Assembly: GCA_003551625.1 (NCBI GenBank)
Contig: PUNC01000133.1
Location: 30,013 to 94,012, forward strand
Source: PVC group bacterium
Lineage (GTDB): Bacteria > Auribacterota > Erginobacteria > Erginobacterales > PUNC01
Direction of reading: 5' to 3'
Length of the DNA stretch: 64,000 bases
Shown here: piece by piece, positions 21,092 to 53,412 of the stretch
Position numbering within the stretch: position 1 is the stretch's first letter
Layout: every line of letters begins with the position of its first letter
The notes under the pieces: model-generated
Told to the model about the DNA's origin: nothing
Database searches by the model: none
What the model saw: only the letters and a program-made list of their open reading frames with translations
Translations under genes and position numbers: made by a program

Positions 21092-21967
21092 TTATTCTTC
21101 CAGCGGGACATAGATCTCGGTAAGGAGACGCTCCGGGGGCGTGCGGGCGGGATCGTTGAGGTAGACCTCGTAGCAGGGGGCGTTACCGACCATCCGGCCG
21201 CTGGTCGGCGCCCACTCGCCGTAGATCCTCGAGTAGGCGTCTTTCAGCCCGCTGTAGGGGCCCCGGTGCTCCGCGATCGCGAACTCGCCGCCGGGCAACG
21301 TCCGGACCCCGATCTCCCCTTCCGGCTCGACGTCTTCGCCGACGGTTACGCAGGCGTCGTAGCGGATTTTGGCCGGTGGGGTGACGTCGGGATCGTCGTA
21401 GGAGACGCCGACGGCCGCGGTCTCCGGTCCGAGCAGCCCCCGGCGACCGGCCCAGGCGCAGAGCCGTTCCCAGGCGGCACCGCATTCCTCGTAGGGGCCG
21501 ATGTGGCGGATAAACGCCACCTGCCGGGGCGGGACCTTTTCTATCCTTATCTTCATCCTGGTTCCTCCTTTGAGTTTGGGTTTTAGAATCGGCGACGGTC
21601 GGGGCGGCAAGGCGGGCGAGCTTCCGTCCGGTCGGCGACGCCAGGACGAAGGCGAACGGCCGAACATCTTCCGGAAGGCCCGGCTGAACGATTCGTGGGT
21701 CTCGAAACCGGCCTCCAGGGCGACGTCGAGGACGGAACGCCGGGAGTTTGCCAGGGCGTGGGTCGCCCTTTCCAGGCGCAGCCGGCGGATATGCTCGCCG
21801 ACCGGCTCTCCCACCAGGCCCTTGAAGATCCGGTGGAAGTGAAACGGCGAGAAACAGGCGATCCCGGCCAGCTCTTCCAGCGGCAGCGGCTCGTCCAGCC
21901 GCGACTGGATGTGGACGAGCACTTCCAGGATACGCTGGCGGTAGATTCTTTCGGTCTCGTTCTTCAT
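21092..21967 (-). CDS. AraC-family transcriptional regulator with C-terminal GyrI-like effector-binding domain
   Basis: N-terminal AraC HTH (LEELAGIACFSPFHFHRIFK...HESFSRAFRKMFG) followed by GyrI-like domain. Confidence 0.85.
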   Translation of the reverse strand: MKNETERIYRQRILEVLVHIQSRLDEPLPLEELAGIACFSPFHFHRIFKGLVGEPVGEHIRRLRLERATHALANSRRSVLDVALEAGFETHESFSRAFRKMFGRSPSSWRRRPDGSSPALPPRPSPILKPKLKGGTRMKIRIEKVPPRQVAFIRHIGPYEECGAAWERLCAWAGRRGLLGPETAAVGVSYDDPDVTPPAKIRYDACVTVGEDVEPEGEIGVRTLPGGEFAIAEHRGPYSGLKDAYSRIYGEWAPTSGRMVGNAPCYEVYLNDPARTPPERLLTEIYVPLEE

Positions 21968-22061: not shown

Positions 22062-22508
22062 TCAGGCGGGATCGAGCAGCTTGAAACCGGTGGCCGGGTC
22101 GTGGCGGCGGACCGACCGGTCCCCGGTCAGCTCCACCATCACCACCTCCAGGACTTCCCAGACCCGGAGCCCTTCCCGGCCGCAGCCGGTGACGGTCTTC
22201 TCTCCCCTCCCGCAGGCCAGGTGCATATGAAGAAGAGGGTTGCCGTCCCCGTCGGGGAAGAGAGTCCCCACGCCGGCGGCCTCGTGGACGCCGCGAAGAA
22301 GATGGTGGAGGGGCGGAACCGGGCGGGCGGCCGGATCCTCGGGGCCGACGACCAGCCGGCTGCCCTCGTCGGCTCCGCCGACGGCGAACAGGCAGGCCGA
22401 CCGGACGCCGAGGCGGCGGGCGAAATCCTCGATCGTTTCGTGGAGAACCTCGCCGTTCTCCAGCCGCAGGACAAAAACCCTTCCCGGCGCCGCTTCGGAA
22501 TATTTCAT
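22062..22508 (-). CDS. PCC/DUF296 (plants-and-prokaryotes-conserved) domain protein
   Basis: 148 aa, pattern RVFVLRLENGEVLHETIEDFA...FAVGG typical of DUF296 proteins. Confidence 0.6.
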   Translation of the reverse strand: MKYSEAAPGRVFVLRLENGEVLHETIEDFARRLGVRSACLFAVGGADEGSRLVVGPEDPAARPVPPLHHLLRGVHEAAGVGTLFPDGDGNPLLHMHLACGRGEKTVTGCGREGLRVWEVLEVVMVELTGDRSVRRHDPATGFKLLDPA

Positions 22509-22518
22509 CTTCAGCGGC

Positions 22519-23304
22519 TCACTTGCGGCGGATGTAGATGACCTTCTGGCGATTGCCGGGCCCCTCCTGCCGGCTGTCGATCTCGAAGAGATTGATCGCC
22601 CGGATCAGGGAGCTGAGCTTGGCGTAACCGTAGTTGCGGGAATCGAACGAGGGATGCTGGTTGGAGATCTTCGAGCCCACGCGGGCCAGCGGGGCCCAGC
22701 CGTCCTCCTCGGCCACCGCCTCGACCGCATCGGCGATCATCCCCGACAGTTTCTTGTCCTTCCGCAAAGCCTCGGCCCCCTTGCGCCTCCCCGCGGCCGA
22801 TTGCCGGGCGGCGGCGGCCTCGCCTTCCGGGGATTTCCGGAGGATGTCGTTGTAGATGAACTTGTCGCAGGCGCTGACGAAGGCGGCCGGGGTCTTCTTC
22901 TCGCCGAAACCGTAAACCGTCAACCCCTGTTCGCGGATCCGGGAGGCCAGCCGGGTGAAGTCGCTGTCGCTGGTGACCAGGCAGAAACCGTCGAACCGGC
23001 CGGTGTAGAGCAGGTCCATCGCGTCGATGATCATCGCGCTGTCGGTGGCGTTCTTGCCGACGGTGTGGCGGAACTGCTGGATGGGATGAATGGCGAAGCT
23101 GGCCAGCACCTTCTTCCAGCTGCTTAAGTTGGTCGATGTCCAGTCGCCGTAGATCCGCTTGACCGTCGCGGTGCCGTATTTCGAGATCTCCGCCACCAGG
23201 GCGTCGATAATCGTGGGCGTGGTGTTGTCGGCGTCGATCAGGACCGCCAGCCTCTTCTCGGCAGCATTTCTCGCGTCCATAAACTCCCTCTCATCTGGGG
23301 TCAA
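22519..23304 (-). CDS. NYN-domain ribonuclease with C-terminal OST-HTH/LOTUS domain
   Basis: LAVLIDADN...DSAMIIDAMDL...FCLVTSDSDF (NYN/PIN-like acidic residues). C-terminal OST-HTH (GWAPLARVGSKISNQHPSFDSRNYGYAKLSSLI). Confidence 0.8.
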   Translation of the reverse strand: MTPDEREFMDARNAAEKRLAVLIDADNTTPTIIDALVAEISKYGTATVKRIYGDWTSTNLSSWKKVLASFAIHPIQQFRHTVGKNATDSAMIIDAMDLLYTGRFDGFCLVTSDSDFTRLASRIREQGLTVYGFGEKKTPAAFVSACDKFIYNDILRKSPEGEAAAARQSAAGRRKGAEALRKDKKLSGMIADAVEAVAEEDGWAPLARVGSKISNQHPSFDSRNYGYAKLSSLIRAINLFEIDSRQEGPGNRQKVIYIRRK

Positions 23305-23324
23305 ATCTTTACTCTTGACTTTAC
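23297..23324. repeat. REP-like 28-bp element copy A (GGGGTCAAATCTTTACTCTTGACTTTAC)
   Basis: Exact reverse complement of copy B at 24342-24369. Together they bracket the RAYT gene. Confidence 0.75.
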
Positions 23325-24317
23325 CTTATTCAGTTTCGCCAGCTTCTCCTCAAATTCCCTCCGCCGGGAGGAATCCTCCTCCAATTGCCGCCGAAACCGC
23401 TTTCTCGACACGCTGACCGCGCTGTAATCTATACCGCCCATCAACTCTCCGATCTCAGCCTGGGTTATCGGACAGAAGCGATAAAGCAACTCCATCAGCA
23501 TTGACCGCTCGACGGTCCTCCTTCCTCTCCGGCAGAGCTCGGTCCGGGACGTCCCGATCATCCGGCAATACCTTTCTATCAACTCCCCGGGCTCGTACTC
23601 CGAATGCAATATTCTGACCGCCGGCTGTTCCCGGGGAGAAACCCCGCGGTCAAAACCGCGGGACTTAATCCGGTTGATGAACTCCTCCTCGCCGACAACC
23701 CCATGGCCCCGGGCCAGGGCCAGAGGATTGGCCAAACCCTCGTCGAGACCGCGAGCGACAAACCGGCAGTAGGCCCTTCTTCCCCCGGCATTATCCCCGC
23801 CCAGGTAATTGAGCAGAACCCGGTAATCGATAAATCCTTTACGCCTGGCGACCGAGCAATACCCCGGAAGACTGCTCCATTGGTATCTCAAAAGGTCGCG
23901 CCAGGCGTCGAAAGCGGCTTCCGTCCCCGCCCCGGCAGCCCGTGCCGGATTCAGATGCACGTAGCGGGAAACCTCCAGCAGGTAACTGTCGGCGTCGATC
24001 AGGAACGCCTTATATCTGCCCTGGTAGAGATGTCCCACCCGTTTGTGCCGGTGATTGAAAGCGCCGGTGTAGGAGACGTTAAAGTGGCGCATGAACTCCG
24101 GAAGGTTCCCCCGGGGCGTCTTCACCAACAGGTGGAAGTGATTGGGCATACAGACATAGGCCAGCAGCGATACGCCGTAAATTTCGGTCGACAGGGCGAG
24201 TTTCTTCAGAAATATTTCCCGGTCCCGCGGGTCGCGAAAAATCTTCTTCTTCTCGTTACCCCGGCAGGTGATATGATAGCAGGCGCCGGGATAGAGAATT
24301 CTTAAGGGTCTGGCCAT
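23301..24317 (-). CDS. IS200-like Y1 tyrosine transposase, REP-associated (RAYT), with C-terminal DnaA-like HTH extension
   Basis: HuH motif PNHFHLLV and catalytic Tyr context HLYQGRYKAF. 338 aa. Flanked by inverted REP-like repeats. Stop overlaps the NYN gene start by 4 nt. Confidence 0.8.
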   Translation of the reverse strand: MARPLRILYPGACYHITCRGNEKKKIFRDPRDREIFLKKLALSTEIYGVSLLAYVCMPNHFHLLVKTPRGNLPEFMRHFNVSYTGAFNHRHKRVGHLYQGRYKAFLIDADSYLLEVSRYVHLNPARAAGAGTEAAFDAWRDLLRYQWSSLPGYCSVARRKGFIDYRVLLNYLGGDNAGGRRAYCRFVARGLDEGLANPLALARGHGVVGEEEFINRIKSRGFDRGVSPREQPAVRILHSEYEPGELIERYCRMIGTSRTELCRRGRRTVERSMLMELLYRFCPITQAEIGELMGGIDYSAVSVSRKRFRRQLEEDSSRRREFEEKLAKLNKVKSRVKI

Positions 24318-24341
24318 ATTTCAACCATAGCGGCCGCGGAC

Positions 24342-24369
24342 GTAAAGTCAAGAGTAAAGATTTGACCCC
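24342..24369. repeat. REP-like 28-bp element copy B (GTAAAGTCAAGAGTAAAGATTTGACCCC)
   Basis: Perfect inverted copy of A. Contains an internal GTCAA...TTGAC hairpin. Confidence 0.75.
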
Positions 24370-24993
24370 ATGGAAATACCGGGATTGTCAACCCACCGGC
24401 TGGAAGCCCTGACCGACGGAGTCTTCGCCATCGCGATGACCCTTCTGGTCCTGAATCTCCACATTCCGGACAGGATCCTGGAGCTCGGCGAAGGGCAGGC
24501 CCGGCAGATTCTAATCGATCAGATCCCGAAGTTTTTCCATTATGCCGTCAGTTTTATCCTGTTAGCCGTCTTCTGGATCACTCACCACAAGACCTTCCAC
24601 CTGATCGAAAAGACCGACCGGATCCACACCTGGATCAACATCCTGTTTCTGATGTTCGTGGCGCTGATCCCGTTCTCGACATCACTGATCGGGAACTATC
24701 CCGACGACCTGGCGGACGAGCTCTTTTTCAGCGCCAACATCTTCGCCATCGGCGCCCTGGCGCTGCTCAACTGGCTTTACGCCTCCCGCGGCCGGCGGCT
24801 GGTCGGCGAGCGGGTTACGCACGAGCTGGCCGACCTGCTGACCCTGAGAATCGCGGTTATCCCCCTGGTCGCGCTGGCGGCGGCGGGGGTAGCGGCTTTC
24901 AAACCGGGATGGGCCCCCTTCTCGCTGCTTTTGATCCCGCTCATCCTTCTCCTTCTTCCCACCCGGACACGACGTGACCGCCGAGATGATTGA
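24370..24993 (+). CDS. TMEM175-like potassium channel (DUF1211)
   Basis: N-terminal motif RLEALTDGVFAIAMTLLVLNL and 6-TM topology typical of the TMEM175/DUF1211 family. Confidence 0.75.
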   Translation: MEIPGLSTHRLEALTDGVFAIAMTLLVLNLHIPDRILELGEGQARQILIDQIPKFFHYAVSFILLAVFWITHHKTFHLIEKTDRIHTWINILFLMFVALIPFSTSLIGNYPDDLADELFFSANIFAIGALALLNWLYASRGRRLVGERVTHELADLLTLRIAVIPLVALAAAGVAAFKPGWAPFSLLLIPLILLLLPTRTRRDRRDD

Positions 24994-25152: not shown

Positions 25153-26052
25153 ATGCGAATCGGCTACCCCTGCATCAACCGTTCCCTCGGCTGCACCGCC
25201 GGCCGGACCTTCCGGCTCGCCTCCTATTCGCGACGGCGGATGGCCGAGACGGTCGCACTCAATCTTGACTGCCTGGAGAAAATCCTGGCCTTCAACGCCG
25301 TCAACGGCCTGCTCTTCTTCCGGATAAGCTCCGACCTGATTCCCTTCGCCTCGCACCCGGTCTGCCGTTTTCCCTGGGCCGAACGCTTCGGCGAAAGGCT
25401 GCGGGCGATCGGGCGGTTGATTAAGAAACAGGGCTTCCGGATCTCGATGCACCCCGACCAGTTCACCCTGATCAACTCACCCGACGGGGGAGTCTTCAAC
25501 CGCTCGGCGGCGGAGCTGGAATACCACTGCCGGGTGCTGGACCTGATGGGGCTGGACCGGACGGCGCGGGTCCAGATCCACGTGGGAGGCGTCTACGGAG
25601 ACCGGGAAACGAGCATGAAAAGATTCGTCGAGCGCTTCCGGAGCCTTGACCGCGCCGTCCGCCGGCGGCTGACGATCGAGAACGACGAGCGGCTCTATCC
25701 CGTCGCCGACTGTCTGGCGCTCTCGCGCGCGACCGGCGTCCCGGTCCTCTTCGACCTCTTCCACCACCGCCTCAACCACCGGCGCGAGAGCGCGGCCGAC
25801 GCCCTGGACGCCTGCGCCGCCACCTGGCCCGCGGCCGCCGGGATCCCGATGGTCGACTACTCGTCGCAGCAACCGGGGGGAAGACCGGGAAAACACGCCG
25901 AGAGCATCGACACCTCCCACTTCAAACGGTTCCTCCGGGCGACGCGGGGAATTGATTTCGACGTGATGCTCGAGATCAAGGACAAGGAGAAAAGCGCTCT
26001 CGCCGCCCTGGCGGCGGCGGGACGCGACCGGCGGCTGGCGATGGGGGTTTGA
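25153..26052 (+). CDS. uvdE: UV DNA damage endonuclease UvdE
   Basis: MRIGYPCINRSLGC... N-terminus and TIM-barrel UVDE pattern (HVGGVYGDRE, LTIENDE). Confidence 0.85.
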   Translation: MRIGYPCINRSLGCTAGRTFRLASYSRRRMAETVALNLDCLEKILAFNAVNGLLFFRISSDLIPFASHPVCRFPWAERFGERLRAIGRLIKKQGFRISMHPDQFTLINSPDGGVFNRSAAELEYHCRVLDLMGLDRTARVQIHVGGVYGDRETSMKRFVERFRSLDRAVRRRLTIENDERLYPVADCLALSRATGVPVLFDLFHHRLNHRRESAADALDACAATWPAAAGIPMVDYSSQQPGGRPGKHAESIDTSHFKRFLRATRGIDFDVMLEIKDKEKSALAALAAAGRDRRLAMGV

Positions 26053-26128: not shown

Positions 26129-26216
26129 GGGAGAGGTGCCGGAGTGGTTGAACGGGGCGGTCTTGAAAACCGTTGTCCGCGTGAGCGGACCGTGGGTTCG
26201 AATCCCACCCTCTCCG
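26129..26216 (+). tRNA. tRNA-Ser (anticodon UGA), type II with long variable arm
   Basis: Hand-folded: acceptor GGAGAGG/CCTCTCC, anticodon loop CTTGAAA, variable arm GTCCGCGTGAGCGGAC, T-arm CGTGGGTTCGAATCCCACC. No encoded CCA. Confidence 0.9.
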
Positions 26217-26418: not shown

Positions 26419-27696
26419 TTACAAGGGGGCGGAGAGCGTGTCGCGGCCGTGGAGGTAGGGGCGCAGGGCCGCGGGAATCTCCACGGTTCCGTCGGAGCGC
26501 TGGTAATTCTCCAGCAGGGCGACGATGGTCCGGGGCAGCGCCAGCCCGGAAGCGTTGAGGGTGTGGGGATGTCTTACCTTGCCGGCGCCGTCGCGGAAAC
26601 GGATGTCGGAGCGGCGGGCCTGGAAGTCGGCGAAGTTTGAACAGGAGGAGACCTCCAGCCATTCGTTCTGCCCGGGCGCCCAGGCCTCGATGTCGTAACA
26701 CCTGGCGGAGGCGAAACTCAGGTCGGAAGCGGGCAGCTCGATCACCCGGTAAGGAATCTTGAGAATCGCCAGAACCTTCTCCGCGTCGGCCAGCAGGCTC
26801 TCCAGCTCCCGCCAGGATTCCTCGGGGCGGGTGAACTTAACCAGCTCTACCTTGTCGAACTGGTGGAGACGGATCAGCCCCCGGGTATCCTTCCCGTAGG
26901 AGCCGGCCTCCCGCCGGAAGCAGGCGGTGACGGCGACCAGGCGAAGGGGCAGCTCGGGGTCTTCCAGGATCTCCCCGCGGTAGAGATTGGTCAGCGGCAC
27001 CTCGCCGGTAGGGATGAGGAAGAGGTCCTCCCGGTCGAGGTGGTACATATCGTCCTCCAGCTTGGGGAGCTGACCGGTGCCGACCAGGCAATCGCGGGAG
27101 CAGAGGACCGGCGGCGAGATCTCAAGGTAGCCGTGCTCGGAGGTGTGCAGGTCGAGCATAAAGTTGACCAGGGCGCGGGAGAGCAGCGCGCCGTCCCCCT
27201 TCAGGAGGGGGAAATTGCTCCCGCTGATCCGGGCCGCCCGGGGCAGGTCGGCCAGCTGGAGCGTATCGACGATTTCAAGGTGATCGCGGGGGGAGAAATC
27301 GAAATCGCGGACGGCCCCCTCTTCCCTGACCAGCCGGAACGGCTCCCGCTCCGTTCCGTCCGGAACGTCCGGGTGGGGAATGTTCGGGACGCGCAGAAGC
27401 AGCCGTCCCAGTTCTTCCTCGACCTCCTTGAGATCCCCGTCCAGGGAGCGGATCCGGCCGGAAAGCTCCTTCATCTCCGCCATCCGCGCCGAGCCTTCCT
27501 CCCCTCGCTTCTTCGCTTCCCCGATCTCCCGGGAGGCGGCGTTGCGGACGCGCTTGAGTTCCTCGGCCCGGGAGAGGAACTCCCGGCGTCGGGCGTCCAG
27601 CTTCAGGATTCCGTCCAGATCCGCTTCCATCCTCCGGGCGTTCAGGGCGGCGCGAACCGTCTCCGGATTCTCTCTAATGTATTTAAGATCGAGCAT
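26419..27696 (-). CDS. serS: seryl-tRNA synthetase
   Basis: MLDLKYIRENPETVRAAL... N-terminal coiled-coil arm plus class II core motifs. Confidence 0.95.
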   Translation of the reverse strand: MLDLKYIRENPETVRAALNARRMEADLDGILKLDARRREFLSRAEELKRVRNAASREIGEAKKRGEEGSARMAEMKELSGRIRSLDGDLKEVEEELGRLLLRVPNIPHPDVPDGTEREPFRLVREEGAVRDFDFSPRDHLEIVDTLQLADLPRAARISGSNFPLLKGDGALLSRALVNFMLDLHTSEHGYLEISPPVLCSRDCLVGTGQLPKLEDDMYHLDREDLFLIPTGEVPLTNLYRGEILEDPELPLRLVAVTACFRREAGSYGKDTRGLIRLHQFDKVELVKFTRPEESWRELESLLADAEKVLAILKIPYRVIELPASDLSFASARCYDIEAWAPGQNEWLEVSSCSNFADFQARRSDIRFRDGAGKVRHPHTLNASGLALPRTIVALLENYQRSDGTVEIPAALRPYLHGRDTLSAPL

Positions 27697-32178: not shown

Positions 32179-34614
<2,436 letters not shown>

Positions 34615-34944
34615 CTATTCCTTGTCCAGTTCCCCGATGGTGAATATCAGTTTCTTCACCATCGGTTTCCCCAGCTCCCGGTTGAGTTTCTCCAGGATGC
34701 GGGTTTTGAAATAGCGGTTGATCTGGGCCAGCCAGACGGAGCTGTCGACGGAAACGATAAGTCGGCCTTCCTGGAAGCTCCGGGGCCGGGTATGCCGGGC
34801 GATATCCTGACCCACCACGGCATTCCAGAGATGGAGGATCCGTCCCGATGATAGAAGTTCTTTCAGACCCGGGCGGGAGAATACTTCATCGATCACAGTC
34901 CGGATCGGCCGGGGGCCGCCGGTCTTGTCCTTCTTCACGTTCAA
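34615..34944 (-). CDS. DUF721 (DciA/YaaB-like) protein
   Basis: 109 aa between dnaN and gyrB, the position occupied by DUF721 proteins in many origin regions. Confidence 0.65.
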   Translation of the reverse strand: MNVKKDKTGGPRPIRTVIDEVFSRPGLKELLSSGRILHLWNAVVGQDIARHTRPRSFQEGRLIVSVDSSVWLAQINRYFKTRILEKLNRELGKPMVKKLIFTIGELDKE

Positions 34945-36035
34945 GCCAGCTTGATGGGCATGATTATGGCCAAAAACTTGCCATTGGTCCTGATCACCCC
35001 CGGACTGTCCGAATCATTGAGTTCCAGCGTAAACTCCTCTTCCTCAAGATTCTTTAAAACATCATTGATGAAGTGCGGGTTGAAGGCGATCTCGGCGTCT
35101 TCGCCCCGGTATTCAATGTTGAGATCTTCCCGGGCTTCACCGACGTCGGGGGTGGCGGTGGTGATTTCTACCCGGCCGGCGGCGAATGACAACTTGACCG
35201 AGGGAGAGTTTTCGCTGGCCAGCAGGGCCACCCGCTTGACCGAGGCCATAAATTCTTCCCGGGGAACCGGGATTCTTATCCGGGATGATTCCGGGATTAC
35301 CTGTTGATAGCTCGGGAAACGCCCGTCAATTTGCCGGGAGAAGATCTGGACCGAGGGAGTAACAAATGCGACTTGATGAGTACCCACTTTGATCTTGACC
35401 TCGCCCTCCCCCTTCAGCACCCGGTCGAGCTCGGCCACCGTCTTCAGAGGCAGAATCACGTCGGATTTGAAGTCGGGGGGCATCTCGCAGTCGGTCTGGG
35501 CCATCGAGAGTCGACGACCGTCGGTGGCCACCGCAGTCAGGATTCCCCCGGAAAACGAGATCAAAATTCCATTGAGCGTATAGCGGCTTTCGTCCTGGGC
35601 GGCGGCGTAAGCGGTCTGTCGGATCAACTCCACCAGGTTCTTCTGGGAGATCGTCGTCTCGGTGGCTTGCGCCAGGTCCGGCTGGCCGGGGAACTCATCC
35701 TTGGCCAGACCGAGCATCTTGAAATAAGACCTCATGGATTTGACCACGGTAGCGCCGTCTTCCTTCACTTCAATCGTGCCTTCCTGGCCGGGTAGCTCCC
35801 GTACGATGCTGATAAACCTGCGGCCGGGTATCGTAATCGCCCCCTCTCCTTCAGTCTTGGCCGGAAAACGGCACTTAATCCACATTTCCAGATCGCTTCC
35901 GATCACCCAGGCTTCTCCTCCCGCTACTTCAAACGCGAGGTGCGAGAGTATGGGGAGCATAGTCTTGGAACCGATTACGCCCTGCAAAGGCGTCAGGCAC
36001 TGGAGCGCGGAATCCTTCTGGAATGTGAGTTTCAT
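34941..36035 (-). CDS. dnaN: DNA polymerase III beta sliding clamp
   Basis: MKLTFQKDSALQCLTPLQGVIGSKTMLPILSHL..., three-domain clamp of 364 aa. Confidence 0.9.
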   Translation of the reverse strand: MKLTFQKDSALQCLTPLQGVIGSKTMLPILSHLAFEVAGGEAWVIGSDLEMWIKCRFPAKTEGEGAITIPGRRFISIVRELPGQEGTIEVKEDGATVVKSMRSYFKMLGLAKDEFPGQPDLAQATETTISQKNLVELIRQTAYAAAQDESRYTLNGILISFSGGILTAVATDGRRLSMAQTDCEMPPDFKSDVILPLKTVAELDRVLKGEGEVKIKVGTHQVAFVTPSVQIFSRQIDGRFPSYQQVIPESSRIRIPVPREEFMASVKRVALLASENSPSVKLSFAAGRVEITTATPDVGEAREDLNIEYRGEDAEIAFNPHFINDVLKNLEEEEFTLELNDSDSPGVIRTNGKFLAIIMPIKLA

Positions 36036-36255
36036 TTTCTGCCTCCTTGGAACTCTATCATTATTATATTCTTATCCGTTTTAAAAACAACTTAATAATA
36101 ACAATAAGGGGCGGGGATATGTGGAATTCCGCCTTGAACGGTTCACGTCGGACCCTGTGAACAATTGGGGATAGAAGGTGGATAGTTGTGGACAAGCAGC
36201 CTTAACTTATAAAGCCGGGGGGTTTTCCCCGGAATCCCCCCCTCCGGCTAACGGC
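36036..36255. promoter_or_regulatory. dnaA-dnaN intergenic AT-rich island with DnaA-box-like motifs (possible second oriC module/DUE)
   Basis: 36045-36105 is about 80% AT in a 65%-GC genome. Near-consensus boxes TGTGGACAA (36187-36195, 8/9), TGTGGAATT (36120-36128, 7/9), GGTGGATAG (36177-36185, 7/9), TTATCCGTT (36072-36080, 7/9). Confidence 0.5.
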
Positions 36256-37641
36256 TTATCCACGGTGTTGTTCACGTATTTTCTTCTCGAGAAACCTGAC
36301 GGTATTGGCGAAGTTCCTGTCGGCGCGGGTTTTCTTTTCCACGGATTTAATCGCGTGCAACACGGTGGTATGGTCCCGCCCGCCGAAGGACTCCCCGATA
36401 TCCTTGAGGGAGGCGGCCGTCATCGACCGGGAAAGGTACATCGCGATCTGCCGGGGCAGCGCTATGCCTTTCGGCCGGCGGGAGCCACGGATGTCGCCGA
36501 TCCTGATATCGAAGAACTCCGTGACTTTCTTCTGAATCTCCTCGATTGAAAACTGGGGATCGATGTCATCGTCCAGGATTCCGGCTAAAATCCCCTCGAT
36601 CGAGTTGAGATTGAGTTTGACGTTGGTAAGCGAAGCGTAGGAGGCCGCCTGGATGAGCGCGCCTTCGAGGCGCCGGATGTTGGTCTTTACCCGGTCGGCT
36701 AAAAAATAAATGATTTCATCCGGCACGTGGAAACCGTTGATTTCGGCCTCCTTTCTCAAAATCGCGATCCTGGTTTCACGATCGGGTGGCTGAAGATCGA
36801 CCACCAGGCCCCATTCAAAACGGGAGATCAGCCGCTCTTCGATATCCTGAATCTCTTTGGGCGGACGATCGGAAGAGAGGATGATCTGCTTATGGGCATC
36901 CCAGAGCGCGTTGAAGGTATGGAAGAGCTGCTCCTGGGTGCGGACCTGCCCGGCCAGGAAATGAATGTCGTCGATAATCAATACATCGGCCTTGCGATAC
37001 TTGCGCCGGAATTTATCGGTTGTGCGGTTGGCGATCGAGTGAATGAAGTCGTTGGTGAAATTCTCACTGCTGGTGTAGATGATCTGGGAGACGGTATGGT
37101 TGTCCAGGGCCATCCGGGCGGCGGCTTGCATCAGATGAGTCTTTCCCAGGCCCACACCACCATAGATGAAGAGCGGATTGTAAGCGCGCGCCGGAGCCTG
37201 AGCTACCGCCATTGTGGCGGCGTGGGCGAAACGGTTGCAGTCGCCGACGACAAAACGGTCGAACTTGTACTTGGGGTTGAGATTGACGGTTATTGACTTG
37301 CTTCTCGACGGGGGCGGTTCCGGCCGGGTCTCGGGAGGGAGTTCGATCGACGGTGATTCGCCGGTGATCTCATACGATATCGCTACCGGTTGACCGAAGA
37401 CCGCCCGCGCTTTTTCGACAATCAGTTCCCCGTAGTGGCTGTCAATCCAATCACGGTAGAATTTGGAAGGGACCTGGATGAGCAGCGTTCCGCCGCTGAA
37501 GGCGGCGGCCCGGGTGGGATGAAACCAGGTATTGAAATTCTGTTCCCCTACGGAATCTTTAAGTTCCGAGTAGAGGTTTTTAGCGGCGTTGTCCATCAGG
37601 GTGTCAATCGATTTATTTCGTTTACCGTCTGTTTTATCCAC
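36256..37641 (-). CDS. dnaA: chromosomal replication initiator protein DnaA
   Basis: AAA+ Walker A GGVGLGKTHL, domain IV HTTVLHA. GTG start at 37639-37641. Confidence 0.95.
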   Translation of the reverse strand: MDKTDGKRNKSIDTLMDNAAKNLYSELKDSVGEQNFNTWFHPTRAAAFSGGTLLIQVPSKFYRDWIDSHYGELIVEKARAVFGQPVAISYEITGESPSIELPPETRPEPPPSRSKSITVNLNPKYKFDRFVVGDCNRFAHAATMAVAQAPARAYNPLFIYGGVGLGKTHLMQAAARMALDNHTVSQIIYTSSENFTNDFIHSIANRTTDKFRRKYRKADVLIIDDIHFLAGQVRTQEQLFHTFNALWDAHKQIILSSDRPPKEIQDIEERLISRFEWGLVVDLQPPDRETRIAILRKEAEINGFHVPDEIIYFLADRVKTNIRRLEGALIQAASYASLTNVKLNLNSIEGILAGILDDDIDPQFSIEEIQKKVTEFFDIRIGDIRGSRRPKGIALPRQIAMYLSRSMTAASLKDIGESFGGRDHTTVLHAIKSVEKKTRADRNFANTVRFLEKKIREQHRG

Positions 37642-37642
37642 A
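37634..37642. promoter_or_regulatory. perfect consensus DnaA box TTATCCACA overlapping the dnaA start codon
   Basis: Exact 9/9 match. Overlaps the GTG initiation codon, consistent with autoregulation or origin proximity. Confidence 0.7.
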
Positions 37643-38103
37643 GGCGTTTAAAGAGACTAACTTGATTCGTTTTTCGAAGCCTGATCAGAGCAGTTTAACG
37701 CCGAAAATTAGAAGGAAAAGTCCGGCGGGGGACCCGCCGTGCGGACATACGCATAAGTGTATGCCACGCAGTATAATACACTCTGGAATCCACGGTTAGT
37801 TGTGTTTTTATCGATTGCATCGATGGCCGGTCCCGGGGCTTGATTGAGCTTTATCGCAATGAAATTAAGCGGTTATGATTAATCGGGATGGAAAGGAGAA
37901 AGATGTCCACAAGTTATCAACACGCATTTATGTTCTCCTTGGAGGCCGTCCGGCGCGATTTTATTGAGGAGGAAGATAAAAAGCAAGCTTTTTTTTTCGA
38001 AAAATGTATTATTTGACTCTGACCGTTGACAGGGGATTGTTCAACGGCCATAATAACCACTCGTTAAAGCAAAGAAAACATAAACCTTGTGGAGATAGAA
38101 AAA
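37642..38103. promoter_or_regulatory. candidate oriC (dnaA-rpmH intergenic): DnaA-box cluster plus AT-rich unwinding element
   Basis: Boxes TTATCAACA (37914-37922, 8/9), TGTCCACAA (37904-37912, 7/9), TGTGGAGAT (38088-38096, 7/9). AT-rich run 37975-38025. Several GC-stem hairpins (37707-37730). Confidence 0.6.
38026..38054 (+). promoter_or_regulatory. sigma-70-like promoter for rpmH operon (TTGACA, 17-nt spacer, CATAAT)
   Basis: TTGACA at 38026-38031, CATAAT at 38049-38054, about 50 nt before the rpmH ATG. Confidence 0.5.
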
Positions 38104-38241
38104 ATGCCGAAAAGAACCTACCAACCTTCAAAGATCAAGAGGAAGCGCAGTCACGGTTTCCTGAAGCGTAACTCCACGCCTCAAGGACGAGCGATAATCA
38201 AGCGCCGACGGCAGAAAGGCCGGCACCGCCTTTCCGCCTGA
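38104..38241 (+). CDS. rpmH: 50S ribosomal protein L34
   Basis: [45 protein letters not shown], 45 aa. Below the ORF-track size cutoff, translated manually. Confidence 0.9.
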
Positions 38242-38248
38242 AAAAGGT

Positions 38249-38617
38249 TTGATGAGGCTCTCACGGAGATTTCCCCGAAACCTGATCATAAACGGCCGCC
38301 AAACCTTCAGGCAGATTCAGAAAGAAGGAGAACGGCGCAGGGGTAGGCGGATCGATTTATTCTGGAGAATCTCGCCGAGCGGTACCGGTACCTTCGGCTT
38401 TACTACTCGCCGACACTTAAGAAAGGCCGTAGAGCGCAACCGGGCCCGGAGATTGATGAGGGAGGCTATCAGGATAAACCGGGAACGGATCAGGGAGGGT
38501 CACGAACTTGTTTTGGCCTGGAAAGGTCCCGTGGAAGATGTCACATACCGCGAGGCCGAGAACGATATTCTGGCCCTGCTGGAAAAATCCGGTCTTTTGA
38601 AAGTTCAGGAAAGATGA
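38249..38617 (+). CDS. rnpA: ribonuclease P protein component
   Basis: Basic 122-aa protein directly after rpmH. RNR motif region (KAVERNRARRLMREA). Confidence 0.85.
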   Translation: MMRLSRRFPRNLIINGRQTFRQIQKEGERRRGRRIDLFWRISPSGTGTFGFTTRRHLRKAVERNRARRLMREAIRINRERIREGHELVLAWKGPVEDVTYREAENDILALLEKSGLLKVQER

Positions 38618-38835
38618 AATCCGTATTAATAGCGTTTATCAAAATTTATCAGGCGGCGATCTCGCCGCTGCTGGGCAATCGCTGCCGGTTCCATCCGTCG
38701 TGTTCCGAGTATCTGGTCGGCAGTATAGAAAGTTTTGGATGCCGGAAGGGGATCGTGAGGGGGATAAAAAGGCTGATCAAGTGTCATCCCTTCCATCGGG
38801 GAGGATATGATCCTGTAGAAGAAAGATCGCTATAG
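38614..38835 (+). CDS. yidD: membrane protein insertion efficiency factor YidD
   Basis: IKIYQAAISPLLGNRCRFHPSCSEY...HPFHRGGYDPV hallmark sequence. Confidence 0.85.
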   Translation: MKSVLIAFIKIYQAAISPLLGNRCRFHPSCSEYLVGSIESFGCRKGIVRGIKRLIKCHPFHRGGYDPVEERSL

Positions 38836-38901
38836 TTGATTATATATCATAGTAATCAACGATAAGGTACAATCGGTTAATGGGATTAATAGGGTATTTC
38901 T

Positions 38902-40590
38902 ATGGATAAGGTAGGAAAGATTGGTCTGGTGGTATCAATCGGTCTGCTGATTGCCTGGTTCCTCTACCAGTCCGATCTGCAGCGAAGAGAGGCGGAACGT
39001 CGAGCCGCCGAGATGCCGCCCGAGGTTCCAACCACCCCGGTGGTGGATGATGTGCCGAGGGTTGTTCCCGAACCCGAACCGGCGCTCGAGGTCGACCTTC
39101 CGGAACCGGATACGTTTCCGGAAGATGCCGAGGTGATCGAGATCGAGACCGATTTCCTCAAGGTTGAGTTGAGCAACTGGGGGGGCGTGATAAAGAGGGT
39201 GGTCCTGAAAGAGAACGAGAAGGCCGGAATCAGAAGGCTTCCCGACGAAGAAAGCGGCGACGTGGTCCTGGTGGAATCCCGGACTCCCGCCGATGCCCCG
39301 GGAGCTTTAACCTCGCCGCCGGTCGGAGAGATGGAATGGGAACGTTCCGGCAACCGGGTGGTATTCCACTTCAGCGACGAGCGGCTAAAGGTCAGAAAGA
39401 CGTATGAATTTTTTGAGGGTCATTTCGAAGCGCGGCTCCGAATCGAGCTTGAGAATATAAGTGAGGAAAATATTCTGCTTCCGGACGGCCTGGTGCTTTC
39501 GGCGGGAAGCATAAGCACCATCGATGACGGCGATATTCTCGGCGTCGATACCCTCTCGGAAGACCAGGTGGTAAGAAACCGGACGCCCATCGAAAAAACC
39601 TCACTCCCGATCGATTGGACGGCCCTGAAAACAACCTATTTTACCTTCATAATAAATCCGTTGGAAGTTCAGGCCAGCGCGGTCGAGATCGGAGGGAGAA
39701 GAATAGGAGCGGGAGTAAACCGAGCGCTTCTTGGTTGCGCCCCCGGCCCTCAATATGAGGAACTTTCCGCAGCACTCTTCTTCGACCGATTCGCAAACTT
39801 ACCGCCGGCCGGGGCAGCCGAGCTGGATGTGAAAGTATATTTCGGACCCGCCGACTACCGGATACTTAGAGGCTACGACAGTGACTATGAAAGAGTGATC
39901 GATTTCGGTTTCTGGGCACCGATATCGCGAGTCATTATTTGGTCTTTGACCGAGCTCTACAACCTTTTGGGAAGCTACGGTTGGGCTATCATCATCCTTA
40001 CCGTAATAATTCGGATCGTACTCTGGCCGTTGACCCACAAGAGCGCAAAATCGATGAAGGGGATGCAGAAGGTTCAGCCTCTGGTCGCCGGCCTGAAAGA
40101 GAAGTATAAGTCCGACCCCAAGAAACTGCAGGCCGAGACGATGAAACTCTACAAGGAGCACGGTGTAAATCCGATGGGCGGCTGCCTGCCGATGGTGCTC
40201 CAGATACCGATTCTTTTCGCTTTTTTCACCTCGCTCCGCGGCGCAATCCTGCTTCGAAAGGCGCCTTTCTGGATCATCCCCGGACGCTGGATCCAGGATC
40301 TCTCAGGTCCGGACGTTTTAATGACGCTGGAGAGACCATTACCGATCCTGGGTAATAACCTCAACATACTTCCGATCTTGATGGGCATATCTTTCCTGAT
40401 CCAGCAAAAATACACTCCCACCGCGGCCGCCACCCCGGAAGCTGAAAAACAACAGAAGATGATGGCGATTCTAATGCCGGTGATGTTCATATTCATCTTC
40501 TACAGCCTTCCCTCCGGTCTGAACCTTTATTTCCTGGTCAGCAACGTTCTCTCTCTCCCGCAGCAGATAATGGCTGTCCGGAAAAGATAA
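38902..40590 (+). CDS. yidC: membrane protein insertase YidC
   Basis: N-terminal TM, large periplasmic domain, conserved C-terminal 5-TM core (GWAIIILTVIIRIVLWPL...CLPMVLQIPILFAFF). Confidence 0.9.
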   Translation: MDKVGKIGLVVSIGLLIAWFLYQSDLQRREAERRAAEMPPEVPTTPVVDDVPRVVPEPEPALEVDLPEPDTFPEDAEVIEIETDFLKVELSNWGGVIKRVVLKENEKAGIRRLPDEESGDVVLVESRTPADAPGALTSPPVGEMEWERSGNRVVFHFSDERLKVRKTYEFFEGHFEARLRIELENISEENILLPDGLVLSAGSISTIDDGDILGVDTLSEDQVVRNRTPIEKTSLPIDWTALKTTYFTFIINPLEVQASAVEIGGRRIGAGVNRALLGCAPGPQYEELSAALFFDRFANLPPAGAAELDVKVYFGPADYRILRGYDSDYERVIDFGFWAPISRVIIWSLTELYNLLGSYGWAIIILTVIIRIVLWPLTHKSAKSMKGMQKVQPLVAGLKEKYKSDPKKLQAETMKLYKEHGVNPMGGCLPMVLQIPILFAFFTSLRGAILLRKAPFWIIPGRWIQDLSGPDVLMTLERPLPILGNNLNILPILMGISFLIQQKYTPTAAATPEAEKQQKMMAILMPVMFIFIFYSLPSGLNLYFLVSNVLSLPQQIMAVRKR

Positions 40591-40701
40591 TAGATCCCGG
40601 TCTATTATTTTTGCTCTCCTCTTTCTAATATGGCAGAAGGAGTTTGCTTGCTGTCATTCCGACCGTGAGCGAAGCAAAGGGGAAGAACCTCAATTCTTTT
40701 A

Positions 40702-42090
40702 GTGATGAACCGTCCAAATCCCGAGACCATTGTTGCCATCGCTACTCCCCGCGGCCAGGGAGCGCTGGGGATAATCAGGGTGTCTGGCCCCGGATCCTTC
40801 CTTATATCTTCAAGTATCTTTGTCCCCGCTGCCGCAAAGGCTTTTTCAAAGCTTCCTCCCCGCTCTCTTAACCGGGGGATAATCAAGGACGGCCTTTCAG
40901 ATGTCGATGACGTCTGCCTGGTTAGGATGCCCGCTCCGAAGAGTTACACCGGCGAGGATATGGTGGAGATCTACGCCCACGGTGGGGATTACGTGTTGGG
41001 TAGGATATTGGAGACCATCTGCCGGCAAGGAGCGCGTCCGGCCCGTCCCGGAGAATTCACCGAGCGGGCTTTTCTCAACGGGAAACTTGACCTGTTCCAG
41101 GCCGGCTCGGTCGCCGATCTGATCAGGGCCCGTTCAGAAAAGGAACTTCAAGGCGCCCTGGAGCAGCTTAAAGGCGAACCCAGCCGCCTGCTTGATAATG
41201 TCGGCAAAGAGCTGGTGAGGCTCCTGGCCGGGTTGGAGGCGGGTATTGATTTCTCCGATTATGAGGAGGTGGGCCTTCGGAAAGACGAAGTTACCGGGGA
41301 GATAAAGAAAATATTGAATCAGGTTCGGCGGCTTGAGAGGAGATCGGAGAAGGCCGAGAAGATACGGGATGGATTGAATGTAGTATTGGTCGGTAAGCCC
41401 AATGTCGGAAAGTCCAGTCTGCTGAATCTGTTGCTGGGTGAAGAGAGGGCCATCGTCTCTTCCCATCCCGGAACGACCCGGGATACGATCGAGGAAGTGA
41501 TCGAATTTAACGGTTTGGCATTGCGGCTGATCGATACCGCGGGGATTACAGATCCCCGCGGAGAGATTGAAGAGGAGGGGATAAAAAGATCGATCGATAA
41601 GATAAAACGGGCCGCTCTCGCGCTGGTAATTATGGATAAGGGAACGGAGATAGGGGAGGACGATTACCGGGTTCTTAAGCTTTTGAAATCCAGACCCGTC
41701 TTGATACTGATCAACAAGTCCGATCTTCCATCCCGGTTATCGCTGGAGAAAGCCGGGCGATATCTTGACCGGAAAAAGATTATCGAGATATCGGCGACGA
41801 AGAACTGGGGTATTGGAGAACTCAAGAAGGAGATCGGCAGAATCCTGGGGGAGATTGAGACCGGCGATTCCGGAGCCCCGGTCTTTCTCGGCCCCTCAAT
41901 GCGGGTTATGCTGCGCGAAATTAGACTGGCTGTTGAGAGGGCGCTGGATTCGTCTGAAAATGGCCTGTCGTCCGAGTTTATCGCGCTCGACCTTCGGGAG
42001 GCTCTCTCCCGAGTCAGGGGTTTGACCGGGGAAGAGTACGGCGAAGAAATTCTCAAAGAGATATTCTCCAGTTTCTGCGTGGGGAAATAA
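40702..42090 (+). CDS. mnmE: tRNA modification GTPase MnmE (TrmE)
   Basis: G-domain GKPNVGKSSLLN, DTAG, NKSD motifs. C-terminal CVGK motif. Confidence 0.92.
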   Translation: MMNRPNPETIVAIATPRGQGALGIIRVSGPGSFLISSSIFVPAAAKAFSKLPPRSLNRGIIKDGLSDVDDVCLVRMPAPKSYTGEDMVEIYAHGGDYVLGRILETICRQGARPARPGEFTERAFLNGKLDLFQAGSVADLIRARSEKELQGALEQLKGEPSRLLDNVGKELVRLLAGLEAGIDFSDYEEVGLRKDEVTGEIKKILNQVRRLERRSEKAEKIRDGLNVVLVGKPNVGKSSLLNLLLGEERAIVSSHPGTTRDTIEEVIEFNGLALRLIDTAGITDPRGEIEEEGIKRSIDKIKRAALALVIMDKGTEIGEDDYRVLKLLKSRPVLILINKSDLPSRLSLEKAGRYLDRKKIIEISATKNWGIGELKKEIGRILGEIETGDSGAPVFLGPSMRVMLREIRLAVERALDSSENGLSSEFIALDLREALSRVRGLTGEEYGEEILKEIFSSFCVGK

Positions 42091-42094
42091 TAAT

Positions 42095-42110
42095 TGTTCC
42101 ACGGGGAACA
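42095..42110. promoter_or_regulatory. parS-like centromere site 1 (TGTTCCACGGGGAACA)
   Basis: 14/16 match to parS consensus TGTTNCACGTGAAACA. Immediately upstream of parAB. Confidence 0.65.
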
Positions 42111-42153
42111 TCCGCCGGTGAAAGAAAGGCGGATACATCTGCTTGAATGTAAT

Positions 42154-42169
42154 TGTTCCACGTGGAACA
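42154..42169. promoter_or_regulatory. parS centromere site 2 (TGTTCCACGTGGAACA, perfect palindrome)
   Basis: 15/16 to Bacillus-type parS. Perfect 16-bp palindrome. Confidence 0.75.
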
Positions 42170-42341
42170 TTCACATTTATCTTGCCCTGCTTCCTCGAAG
42201 GTGATTTAATCGAGTCTTTGGAGCGGTTGTTCGTTCCGTTGTTCTTAAAAACCGCGCGCGGCGTTAATAAATGCGGGTCTTTTCAGGCACAATGTTCAAG
42301 GAAGAACTCTCCTGTTCAACCCGGAAATCCTGGGGGCGGAT

Positions 42342-43178
42342 TTGCCGGACCGGGGAATAAATATTCCTTCGCTTCTCAAGCCTCGCCTCTGCCTGGGGCC
42401 GGGCTCTTCCCGGCGCCTGACCAGGACGATCGCGGTCGCCAACCAGAAGGGCGGCGTGGGGAAGACGACCACGTGCGTCAACCTGGGAGCAGGCCTGGGA
42501 CGGGCGGGCTACCGGGTCCTCCTGGTGGATCTCGATCCGCAGGCCAACGCTACCAGCGGCCTGGGTTACAACAAGCGGGAGACCCGCCCCGGAGTCTATT
42601 CGCTGCTTCGGGGTGAAGAGCGGGTGGAGCGCGCGGTCATCAAGACACCGTTCTTCAATCTCCACCTCCTACCCTCTAATCCGGATCTTACGGCGTCCGA
42701 GATCGAATTGCTCGATCAGGAAGAGCGGGAGTACCGTCTCAGAAAAATCCTCTCTCCGCTCCGGGGGGATTACGCTTATATTCTTATCGACTGTCCGCCT
42801 TCGCTCAACATTCTCACCATAAACGCCCTGGCCTGTTCGGACTCTCTCATCATTCCCCTGCAGTGCGAATACTACGCTCTGGAGGGCTTGAGTCAGCTCC
42901 TAGAGGTTCTTGACCTGGTGAAAGAGAGGCTTAACGCCGGGCTGGAAATCGAAGGGGTCCTGCTCACGATGAGCGATTCGAGGACCAACCTCTCCCTGCA
43001 GGTCATCGAAGAGGTTAAAAATCACTTTCAAGACAAGGTTTTCAAGACTATAATACCGCGTAATATCCGACTGGGAGAGGCCCCGAGCTTCGGCAAACCG
43101 GTTATCTATTATGAGGAAAAGTCGACCGGTGCGGCCGGATATTTAAATCTTACCGATGAGATTCTGGCGCGCGGATAA
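42342..43178 (+). CDS. parA: chromosome partitioning ATPase ParA/Soj
   Basis: Deviant Walker A IAVANQKGGVGKTTT. The ATG at 42342 gives an unusually long 28-aa leader, so the true start may be further downstream. Confidence 0.85.
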   Translation: MPDRGINIPSLLKPRLCLGPGSSRRLTRTIAVANQKGGVGKTTTCVNLGAGLGRAGYRVLLVDLDPQANATSGLGYNKRETRPGVYSLLRGEERVERAVIKTPFFNLHLLPSNPDLTASEIELLDQEEREYRLRKILSPLRGDYAYILIDCPPSLNILTINALACSDSLIIPLQCEYYALEGLSQLLEVLDLVKERLNAGLEIEGVLLTMSDSRTNLSLQVIEEVKNHFQDKVFKTIIPRNIRLGEAPSFGKPVIYYEEKSTGAAGYLNLTDEILARG

Positions 43179-43195
43179 AGGAGCGATCTGAAAAG

Positions 43196-44053
43196 ATGAA
43201 AAAAGCGGCTCTTGGCAGAGGATTGGACGTGTTGATCGCCAAAAAGGAAGTCAGCACGGTTGCAGGAGATCTCCGGGTTGTTCACCTTGATGTCGGCGAG
43301 ATCAAATCATCTCGATTTCAGCCCCGTTACGAATTCAGGGAGGAAGCTCTCCGGGATCTGAAAAGATCGATTGTGGAGAAAGGCGTGATCCAGCCGATTG
43401 TGGTCCGAAAAACAACCGATGGATACCATCTGATAGCGGGGGAGAGAAGGCTGCGGGCGGCGCGGGAAGCCGGGATTAATAAGATACCGGCGATTGTCCG
43501 GGAAGTCGAGGGGGACGGCGAGCACCTTGAGATATCACTGGTGGAGAATATCCAGAGGGAAGACCTCAACCCGATTGAGAAGGCCCGGGGTTACCGGAGA
43601 CTCAAGGAAGAGTTCGGATTGACTCAGGACCAGATCGCCGGCCATATCGGCCAGGAAAGATCTACGGTCGCCAACACGCTGCGTCTCCTGGAGCTTGAGG
43701 AAGAGATTCAGGCGATGATCTCTCGTGACGAGATCGGCTTCGGGCAAGCCAAGGTTTTGCTTTCGATTCCCGATGCCGGCGAACGGCTCAAGTACGCCAG
43801 GCTGATCAAAGACCGGCCGACGACGGTTCGAGAGCTTGAAACGATGGTTAGCCGGAGACCCGTCCGGTCAAAGAAGGCCGGTGTCCGGGAAAAAGATCTT
43901 CACGTTCGTAATGTCGAGTCGGATCTCAGGGAGATTTTTCAGACCAGGGTGCTGATTCGGGAAGGAAGAGGCTCCCGGGGGAGGATCGAGATCGAATATT
44001 ACAACCGCGATGATCGCGAGAGATTACTTGCGTTATTAAAAAAGCTAATATAG
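43196..44053 (+). CDS. parB: chromosome partitioning protein ParB/Spo0J
   Basis: ParB box IAGERRLRAAREAG, HTH, N-terminal GLGRGLDVLI. Confidence 0.9.
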   Translation: MKKAALGRGLDVLIAKKEVSTVAGDLRVVHLDVGEIKSSRFQPRYEFREEALRDLKRSIVEKGVIQPIVVRKTTDGYHLIAGERRLRAAREAGINKIPAIVREVEGDGEHLEISLVENIQREDLNPIEKARGYRRLKEEFGLTQDQIAGHIGQERSTVANTLRLLELEEEIQAMISRDEIGFGQAKVLLSIPDAGERLKYARLIKDRPTTVRELETMVSRRPVRSKKAGVREKDLHVRNVESDLREIFQTRVLIREGRGSRGRIEIEYYNRDDRERLLALLKKLI

Positions 44054-53358: not shown

Positions 53359-53386
53359 GTAAAGTCAAAAGTAAAGATTTGACCCC
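53359..53386. repeat. REP-like 28-bp element copy C (27/28 identical to copy B, same orientation)
   Basis: GTAAAGTCAAAAGTAAAGATTTGACCCC in the 118-bp EEP/OMP intergenic spacer. Confidence 0.7.
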
Positions 53387-53412
53387 AAATAGGAAGTAGG
53401 AAGGAGGGCGGG

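Follow-up and report, generated by a model that had tools for sequence, protein, structure and literature searches.

The stretch of DNA considered here, hereafter the window, comprises 64,000 nucleotides (64 kb) of contig PUNC01000133.1 from a PVC group bacterium, and the question is what kind of genetic unit occupies its 1073-bp segment 23297-24369, in which a gene for a HUH/Y1 nuclease is bracketed by terminal inverted repeats (TIRs). The repeated 28-mer, GTAAAGTCAAGAGTAAAGATTTGACCCC, occupies 24342-24369 on the plus strand; a perfect inverted copy occupies 23297-23324, and the inverted match extends to 29 of 29 positions when the flanking T/A is counted. A third copy, on the plus strand at 53359-53386 and identical at 27 of 28 positions (G to A at position 11), occupies the 118-nt spacer between a gene of the Exo_endo_phos family and an unannotated 265-aa open reading frame (ORF). 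An earlier sequence-only reading had pointed out both the pair flanking the 338-aa gene and the distant intergenic copy, and both were confirmed. The count of the 28-mer covers the 64-kb window only, where no copies beyond these three were found at up to 3 mismatches; 100 dinucleotide-preserving shuffles of the window gave 0 matches (0 expected by chance). Half-motif searches of the window similarly revealed no degenerate additional TIR copies and, in the vicinity of 53359-53386, neither a partner TIR nor a Y1 remnant, and this third copy is a solo end. The likeness among the window copies ends abruptly at the CCCC(A) edge. Outside the solo copy, beginning 3 nt from its end, the heptamer TAGGAAG stands twice in direct succession (53390-53403).

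The gene itself (23301..24317, minus strand) encodes a protein of 338 aa, composed of an N-terminal HUH/Y1 nuclease, a helical linker and a C-terminal helix-turn-helix (HTH) resembling domain IV of DnaA. The protein matches Pfam Y1_Tnp (7e-13), and a search at E<=1e-10 retrieved 2986 homologs, the best 120 of which are nearly all 330-339 aa long (about 337) and 53-63% identical. Where the sources of the homologs are named, they are Thermodesulfovibrionales, Auribacterota, Aegiribacteria, Desulfobacterales and Syntrophales, that is, several phyla, the hosts of this very uniform 337-aa subfamily being uncultured organisms mostly of sediment, groundwater and bioreactors. Motif conservation was read from a 40-sequence alignment (A1), in which the HUH motif His60-Phe61-His62 (CAC TTC CAC, 24132..24140, minus strand) is invariant, as are Y119, R118, H121, L122, N123 and P124 of the motif SRYVHLNP (SRY[IV]HLNP in the family). 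The catalytic Tyr119 (23961..23963, minus strand) thereby stands at the motif position which passages of PMC3733652 give for the nucleophile of REP-associated tyrosine transposases (RAYTs; REP, repetitive extragenic palindrome). An AlphaFold2 model (predicted local distance difference test, pLDDT, 81.7) finds its best fold match in the E. coli RAYT 4ER8 bound to a REP hairpin (E 1.3e-5, template-modelling score TMt 0.69), followed in the Foldseek search by ISDra2, IS608 and IS200 TnpA at E 1e-4 to 1e-3. The invariant residues, the Pfam match and the top fold match thus bear out the HUH/Y1 enzyme that had been proposed.

The DnaA-like C-terminus, likewise proposed earlier, is also upheld. It spans residues ~256-330 (23328..23552, minus strand) and is detected both by the family profile against PDB entry 1J1V (E=1.1e-3, residues 256-330) and by fold, the domain superposing in Foldseek on the DNA-binding domains of DnaA with TMt 0.84 (3PVP) and 0.82 (1J1V) at a root-mean-square deviation of 1.8 A. 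With the single sequence as query, Pfam was silent on the HTH at E<0.01 and a search against PDB gave nothing significant, in contrast to the family profile and the fold search. With the host's own DnaA C-terminus the domain shares 29% identity over 34 aa. Its 75-95 residues have the fold of DnaA domain IV and its recognition-helix signature GG-x-D-[HY]-[ST]-x-V; however, in DnaA this domain is carried by an AAA+ initiator, whereas here it is fused to a nuclease, and the TIR, its presumed target, bears no resemblance to the TTATCCACA boxes at the genome's own oriC, 13 kb away. The possibility that the TIR is itself a DnaA box was rejected, the boxes being clustered at 35.9-38.9 kb around dnaA with none at the TIRs.

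Each repeat interlocks with the gene. Read along the sense strand of the gene, the left, gene-5'-proximal TIR (24342..24369, minus strand) has the sequence GGGGTCAAATCTTTACTCTTGACTTTAC; the ATG of a TMEM175-like gene adjoins its outer end directly. A promoter-like site (24324..24351, minus strand) places the -35 hexamer TTGACT inside this TIR, followed after 16 nt by the -10 hexamer TATGGT and after a further 6 nt by the ATG at 24317; the site scores 9/12 in a consensus scan and lacks a Shine-Dalgarno sequence. Members of the family have the same geometry, with -10-like hexamers TATTAT, TAATAT, TAGGAT and TAAGAT (L145 and L146 read by eye), and the TIR motif lies 24-27 nt upstream of the ATG in homologs, as at the window's left TIR. 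Such a TIR-embedded promoter would be predicted to yield a leaderless or near-leaderless mRNA. The right TIR (23297..23324, plus strand) overlaps the 3' end of the coding sequence, where it encodes ...K-S-R-V-K-I-stop, the last five codons and the stop falling within it, and the tail S-R-x-K-I-stop is kept throughout the 40-sequence alignment.

The outer end of the right TIR lies 16 nt from the start of a gene combining NYN and OST-HTH/LOTUS domains (Pfam; 22519..23280, minus strand). The claim that the Y1 stop codon overlaps the start of this gene depended on a TTG at 23304 inside the repeat and does not hold: the most likely start is the ATG at 23280, which is preceded by GAGAGGGAG, agrees with the 253-aa gene call of NCBI and leaves a gap of 20 nt from the Y1 stop codon (23301-23303). 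In the neighbourhoods of the homologs the NYN gene never appears, its place being taken by toxin-antitoxin and other genes. These neighbours and the start-codon artefact rule out the NYN gene as part of the unit, and it is properly regarded as a flanking host gene. Co-transcription of the two genes, which had been deduced from the overlap, loses that basis as well as any backing from homolog neighbours; nevertheless, since the region upstream of NYN consists wholly of element sequence and no terminator-like site occurs between the two genes, NYN would be transcribed by read-through or from within the element, and read-through is plausible.

One question then is whether the TIRs and the gene form a unit in other genomes. 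Homologs that are ~57% identical, from hosts spanning 28-58% GC, are flanked by the same end sequence, GGGGTCAAATCTTTnnTCTTGAC, and the ends, inverted at both sides of the gene, read GGGGTCAAATCTTTACTCTTGAC in the window, GGGGTCAAATCTTTCGTCTTGAC at the loci of protein P0093 and GGGTCAAATCTTTTCTCTTGAC at those of protein P0055. In a deltaproteobacterial metagenome-assembled genome (MAG) the same end stands 24 nt upstream of a truncated homolog, a spacing as in the window. Six full units, that of the window and five from metagenomes, measure 1048-1073 bp, and all start with GGGG and finish with CCCC; no target-site duplication and no flanking direct repeat was found at any of the six. In two assemblies, contigs of 1071 and 1081 nt start and stop precisely where the TIRs do. 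No full unit carries a gene other than Y1, the length being constant at 1048-1081 bp, and perfect 28-bp TIRs bound the window unit as well as all full units examined. One and the same protein, P0055, has at least 4 right flanks that differ from one another and at least 3 such left flanks. Because this protein occurs in several contexts, and because the units have exact ends and lack a target-site duplication, these data indicate that the whole unit acts as a repeated, mobile sequence in some hosts.

More distantly, a 34%-identical homolog on a Legionella plasmid follows the same plan, with 26-bp TIRs, a GGGTCAG outer end (GGGTCAGG) and a right TIR covering the stop codon. Plasmid records otherwise held only distant relatives (<=38% identity), the viral contigs searched gave 2 matches in 2.9 million and so no sign of phage carriage, and a scan of GTDB representative genomes with a window-type 25-mer returned 2 matches only. 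At six P0055 loci (L014, L015, L017, L020, L022 and L023) an unrelated sequence common to them (...CAGCGTTTTACTCTAC/ACAAATCCCC) stands in place of the left TIR as far as ...TTG/ACAAATCCCC, which suggests a recombinant or truncated form in which the -10 region and the gene are retained. At L014, L020, L007 and L011, which are P0055 and P0093 loci, a short G-rich unit (GGGGGTAAG; GGGGGACTG) occurs at least twice in succession directly outside the TIR.

The TIR is also dispersed without the gene. A metagenome scan with the core GTCAAGNNNAAAGATTTGACCC yielded at least 120 contigs carrying the motif, a sample selected on that core, in hosts of 28-58% GC, most of the copies having no Y1 gene nearby. 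Among the matches listed these copies take the form of solos (called at a threshold of <=4 mismatches), tail-out doublets and direct pairs, and the close pairs comprise at least 30 tail-out arrangements (GGGG...spacer...CCCC) and 0 tail-in ones. Positions left free in the search pattern are still conserved, with T at the third N in 166 of 175 copies and the fourth C in 150 of 175, and conservation stops at the outer CCCC. In the commonest doublet the spacer is a 17-nt palindrome, and the doublet forms a 30-bp hairpin (-31.7 kcal/mol). Some doublet spacers retain remnants of the gene ends, as in a doublet family of 79-nt spacing which keeps remnants of the 3' end, and one derivative of 601 bp has arisen by internal deletion. 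The pattern is that of an autonomous element accompanied by miniature non-autonomous derivatives, by analogy with the relationships of IS (insertion sequence) to MITE (a miniature transposable element with inverted repeats) and of RAYT to REPIN (hairpin-forming REP doublet).

TIRs with MITE-like derivatives are, as a matter of general knowledge, typical of DDE insertion sequences, and in principle the segment could be a conventional TIR-bearing IS moved by an unlinked DDE-type transposase with the Y1 gene as its passenger. A passenger would not be expected to be the only gene in every full unit, at so constant a length, nor would its reading frame and promoter be interlocked with the TIRs, which supply the -35 box at the left and the last codons and stop at the right; taken together with the absence of a target-site duplication, this makes such an origin scarcely credible.

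Several observations were made at and around the gene-less copies. The stretch 1853-1897 of locus L001 (PUMD01000024.1, from a MAG labelled Clostridia, 59% GC), in an intergenic position on an unrelated 3.7-kb contig without a Y1 gene, contains an exact copy of the window 28-mer and a partial second end, GGGTTGACCCCAA, whose start lies 17 nt upstream of that copy. Just beyond CCCC, tandem duplications with units of 8-18 nt are frequent, and the unit often starts with the last 1-7 TIR bases, as in CC/ATTTCTTTG CC ATTTCTTTG; the loci concerned are L025, L035, L042, L050, L056, L057, L092, L096, L125, L126 and L132, and also L014 and L020, together with the solo copy of the window (53390-53403). 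These duplications occur at 15 of 176 junctions compared with 34 of 849 control positions (p=0.018) and may be the footprint of cleavage and rejoining. The 10 nt outside CCCC are non-random in 150 de-duplicated copies (L024-L143), position +1 being A in 54% (p=3e-11), positions +2 and +3 T, and positions +4 to +10 pyrimidine-rich and depleted of G, while the three outer flanks of the window have only the A at +1 in common. Either the ends extend weakly past CCCC in many subfamilies, as at L120, where both flanks read AGGAGAAGAAT/GGGG, or the bias reflects a target preference.

What type of unit is this, then? The TIRtron, with its protein the TIRYT, was defined bioinformatically by Di Nocera, De Gregorio and Rocco (2013, BMC Genomics 14:522; PMC3733652), in the relevant passages of which it is described as a RAYT-like gene with long TIRs, some of them overlapping the 3' end of the gene, and with further TIR copies occurring as singles, dimers or groups. 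In passages of the later study by Quentin, Siguier, Chandler and Fichant (2018, BMC Genomics 19:475; PMC6006769) the TIRYTs are equated with subclass 2.1 of TnpA_REP, subgroup 2.1.2 carrying a C-terminal HTH that is Bac_DnaA_C-, HTH_23- or HTH_28-like, and the TIR is described as unlike the DnaA box. Passages of both papers give a motif GGGGWSAS, or GGGG[AT][CG]A[CG], for most, but not all, of the TIRs of TIRYTs. The window unit resembles this class in its HUH/Y1 gene, its long TIRs in place of GTAG REPs, the 3' overlap, the single and dimer TIR copies, the Bac_DnaA_C-like C-terminus and a TIR unlike the DnaA box, and because these features match it is filed here under the TIRYT/TIRtron class. 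Segment 23297-24369 is thus most probably a TIRtron, a one-gene, IS-like unit encoding a TIRYT between perfect 28-bp TIRs; judged only by domain architecture and TIR type, its protein would fall in subclass 2.1. The outer end GGGGTCAA fits GGGGWSAS at 7/8 positions, the last being A instead of C/G. The passages on TIRtrons in these two papers contain no mention of a TIR-embedded promoter-like site of leaderless geometry, of the lack of a target-site duplication, of strictly tail-out doublets or of a single TIR sequence in hosts of 28-58% GC, all of which are features of the window family.

The sequence-only reading had gone further and described a RAYT with its cognate REP and BIME (bacterial interspersed mosaic element) family. 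An enzyme of the RAYT branch and dispersed cognate repeats are indeed present, but the repeats are neither REP/BIME palindromes nor host-specific. In its strict form this alternative, a classical REPtron, would make the protein a domesticated single-copy RAYT with a host-specific REP/BIME (REPIN) family. RAYT/REP-REPIN systems are reportedly the subject of work by Nunvar in 2010, Bertels and Rainey in 2011 and Ton-Hoang in 2012. The window unit has in common with these REPtrons (E. coli TnpA_REP, 4ER8) a homologous catalytic fold, nearest to 4ER8 itself, with HUH and Tyr, inverted repeats bracketing the gene, and gene-less repeats dispersed as singlets and as inverted doublets folding into hairpins; moreover, the window copy and that of a 93%-identical relative occupy one inherited site, and the best NCBIfam match is REP_Tyr_transpos (NF047646). 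That match reaches 72.2 bits, below the curated cut-off of 80. REPs are self-complementary hairpins of 20-40 nt with a GTAG (or CGTC) head and are lineage-specific, whereas the end of the window unit is barely palindromic and common to several phyla. Folded singly, the 28-mer pairs over only 5 bp around a 10-nt loop (-2.1 kcal/mol), and its head is GTAA, with no GTAG, at a position not conserved among the 175 metagenome copies; the weak stem and the missing conserved GTAG rule out the identification of the repeats as REPs. An Rfam scan of the window gave nothing at the repeats.

Two further contrasts bear on the same alternative. RAYTs of the 4ER8 type (165 aa) belong to a group of ~150-165 aa without an HTH, whereas the window protein is longer by a C-terminal region of 200 aa. 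Vertical inheritance of a single-copy gene characterises the RAYTs, whereas the window family also includes whole units in new contexts and has the same end sequence across the 28-58% GC range beside proteins 55-63% identical. A classical REPtron is accordingly unlikely. As to copy number, the REPs of REPtrons amount to tens to hundreds of extragenic copies per host, and the 64 kb of the window hold 3 TIR copies, one of them a solo. The comparison with IS200/IS605 elements (IS608, ISDra2 TnpA) is similarly divided: the window unit has a Y1 HUH fold, a Pfam Y1_Tnp match, no target-site duplication and a small size in common with them, but these elements are without terminal inverted repeats, having distinct subterminal hairpins on one strand and inserting beside a specific 4-5-nt target, and their TnpA of ~130-155 aa has no domain for binding double-stranded DNA, unlike the 338-aa window protein with its HTH.

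Each of the three TIR copies in the window has a start codon beyond its CCCC end, at distances of 0, 16 and 26 nt, the last being that of the solo copy from the ATG at 53413, and this raises the question of a regulatory role. The closest of the three is the TMEM175-like channel gene (24370..24993, plus strand; Pfam), a flanking host gene outside the element whose native start codon abuts the left TIR and whose N-terminus is conserved in a 69% relative without the element. In a 93%-identical relative (L147) an identical 28-mer occurs at the same TMEM175 junction. Between the two genes dS (synonymous divergence) is 0.20 and dN/dS 0.17, and the TIR shows 0/28 changes against pS 0.177 in the adjoining gene (P ~0.004). 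Since the junction is identical at dS ~0.2 the insertion is old; on these comparisons it appears stably inherited and the TIR constrained, and the host gene, flanked on its 5' side by the TIR alone, remains functional. A search for the empty site found as the nearest TMEM175 relative without the element one only 69% identical and with a different upstream gene. Because the TIRs are the immediate 5' flanks of two host genes, TMEM175-like and NYN, the expression signals of these genes must lie in the element.

It could be argued from this that the 28-mers are host cis-regulatory elements (operators, promoters or modules of 5' untranslated regions, 5'-UTRs) and that the Y1-HTH protein is their transcription factor, not a transposase. 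The orientation of the three window copies, the perfect conservation of a TIR beside a gene under purifying selection, the HTH of a type predicted from sequence and model to bind double-stranded DNA and the overlap of the TIR with the protein's own putative promoter are all in keeping with such a role. In the metagenomes, however, where ORFs >=100 aa served as crude proxies for genes, 78 outer ends face gene 3' ends and 55 face 5' ends among the matches listed, and given 55:78 the chance of 3/3 window copies facing 5' ends is P ~0.07; these counts rule out a general promoter or 5'-UTR role of the repeat. Again, the L001 copy sits between apparently convergent genes, a pure regulator would not need the invariant catalytic HUH and Tyr, and the tail-out doublets, deletion derivatives and units in new contexts indicate mobility. 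A purely regulatory system is, in our estimation, distinctly improbable.

If the segment is a TIRtron, its working could be envisaged as follows. The HTH would bind double-stranded TIR, either as duplex or as the TIR:TIR stem formed by a doublet or by the whole unit in single-stranded DNA, and would thereby place the Y1 domain so that it breaks and reseals a single strand at the GGGG/CCCC boundary. Full units would then be mobilised in cis, and the doublets and solos that lack the gene in trans, by analogy with RAYT/REPIN systems and with the peel-and-paste mode of IS200/IS605. Protein bound at the left TIR would also repress its own promoter, a form of autoregulation.

Several considerations weigh against the TIRtron interpretation. 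The searchable literature, in which the two papers cited are the only ones to mention TIRYTs, yielded no experiments on TIRYTs or TIRtrons and no demonstration of activity for any of these proteins, and the mechanism is wholly inferred. The 64-kb window contains one unit and one solo, and dispersal within the host genome is unproven; the insertion being common to the window and a relative at dS ~0.2, the window copy may no longer move, or may be domesticated. The outer end of the TIR agrees with the published GGGGWSAS motif at only seven of its eight positions. Contigs ending at TIR ends could reflect repeated ends with a few inner bases and not repeats of the whole unit, and the P0055 contexts are drawn from different samples. 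Lastly, the metagenome sample of at least 120 contigs was selected on the motif, and the solo calls depend on the mismatch threshold.

A wider proposal joins these strands. It is conceivable, and we put it forward tentatively as something that may well prove wrong, that the 337-aa TIRYT subfamily is an unrecognised, currently active, cross-phylum IS family whose DnaA-type domain for binding double-stranded DNA recognises duplex or snap-back TIRs, which spawns palindromic 63-bp miniatures and leaves junction-spanning tandem duplications, and whose ends can be exapted as host expression signals. The example of exaptation would be the TMEM175-like gene, in which a TIR replaces the entire 5' region of a gene under purifying selection. 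Were this proposal true, the family would employ a hybrid double-strand/single-strand mechanism distinct from those of IS200/IS605 and of the RAYTs.

The TIRtron assignment does not overturn current understanding, the type having been known since 2013 and revisited in 2018. The window unit is nevertheless a clean, intact example, with ends that match perfectly, an unbroken gene and a promoter that can be recognised, and the subfamily to which it belongs is very large and uniform, with one conserved end sequence and abundant miniature derivatives in metagenomes; for these reasons it offers a convenient model for a HUH nuclease with inverted ends and a DnaA-like domain. For annotation, the repeats should be entered as element ends, not as REPs, and the NYN gene lies outside the unit; to judge from the layout of the sequence, both adjoining host genes would now depend on element sequences for their expression.

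Other genes near the segment encode a UvdE UV-damage endonuclease (25153-26052), a PCC-domain protein (22062-22508) and an AraC/GyrI-like regulator (21092-21967), none of which showed a link to the element in homolog contexts. The replication origin region also falls within the window (32179-44053), with gyrB (32179-34605), dnaN (34941-36035) and dnaA (36256-37641) on the minus strand followed by yidC, mnmE, parA and parB on the plus strand, a GC dip at 36-46 kb, a cumulative GC-skew minimum near 36 kb and TTATCCACA-like boxes in the cluster around dnaA. An element with a DnaA-like HTH thus lies ~13 kb from oriC, possibly by coincidence. A tRNA-Ser(TGA) gene (26130-26216), the sole Rfam/ARAGORN match in the window, adjoins the gene for seryl-tRNA synthetase (26419-27696), and genes of a V/A-type ATP synthase (an E-like subunit and the catalytic A subunit, 44083-47001) follow directly after parB.

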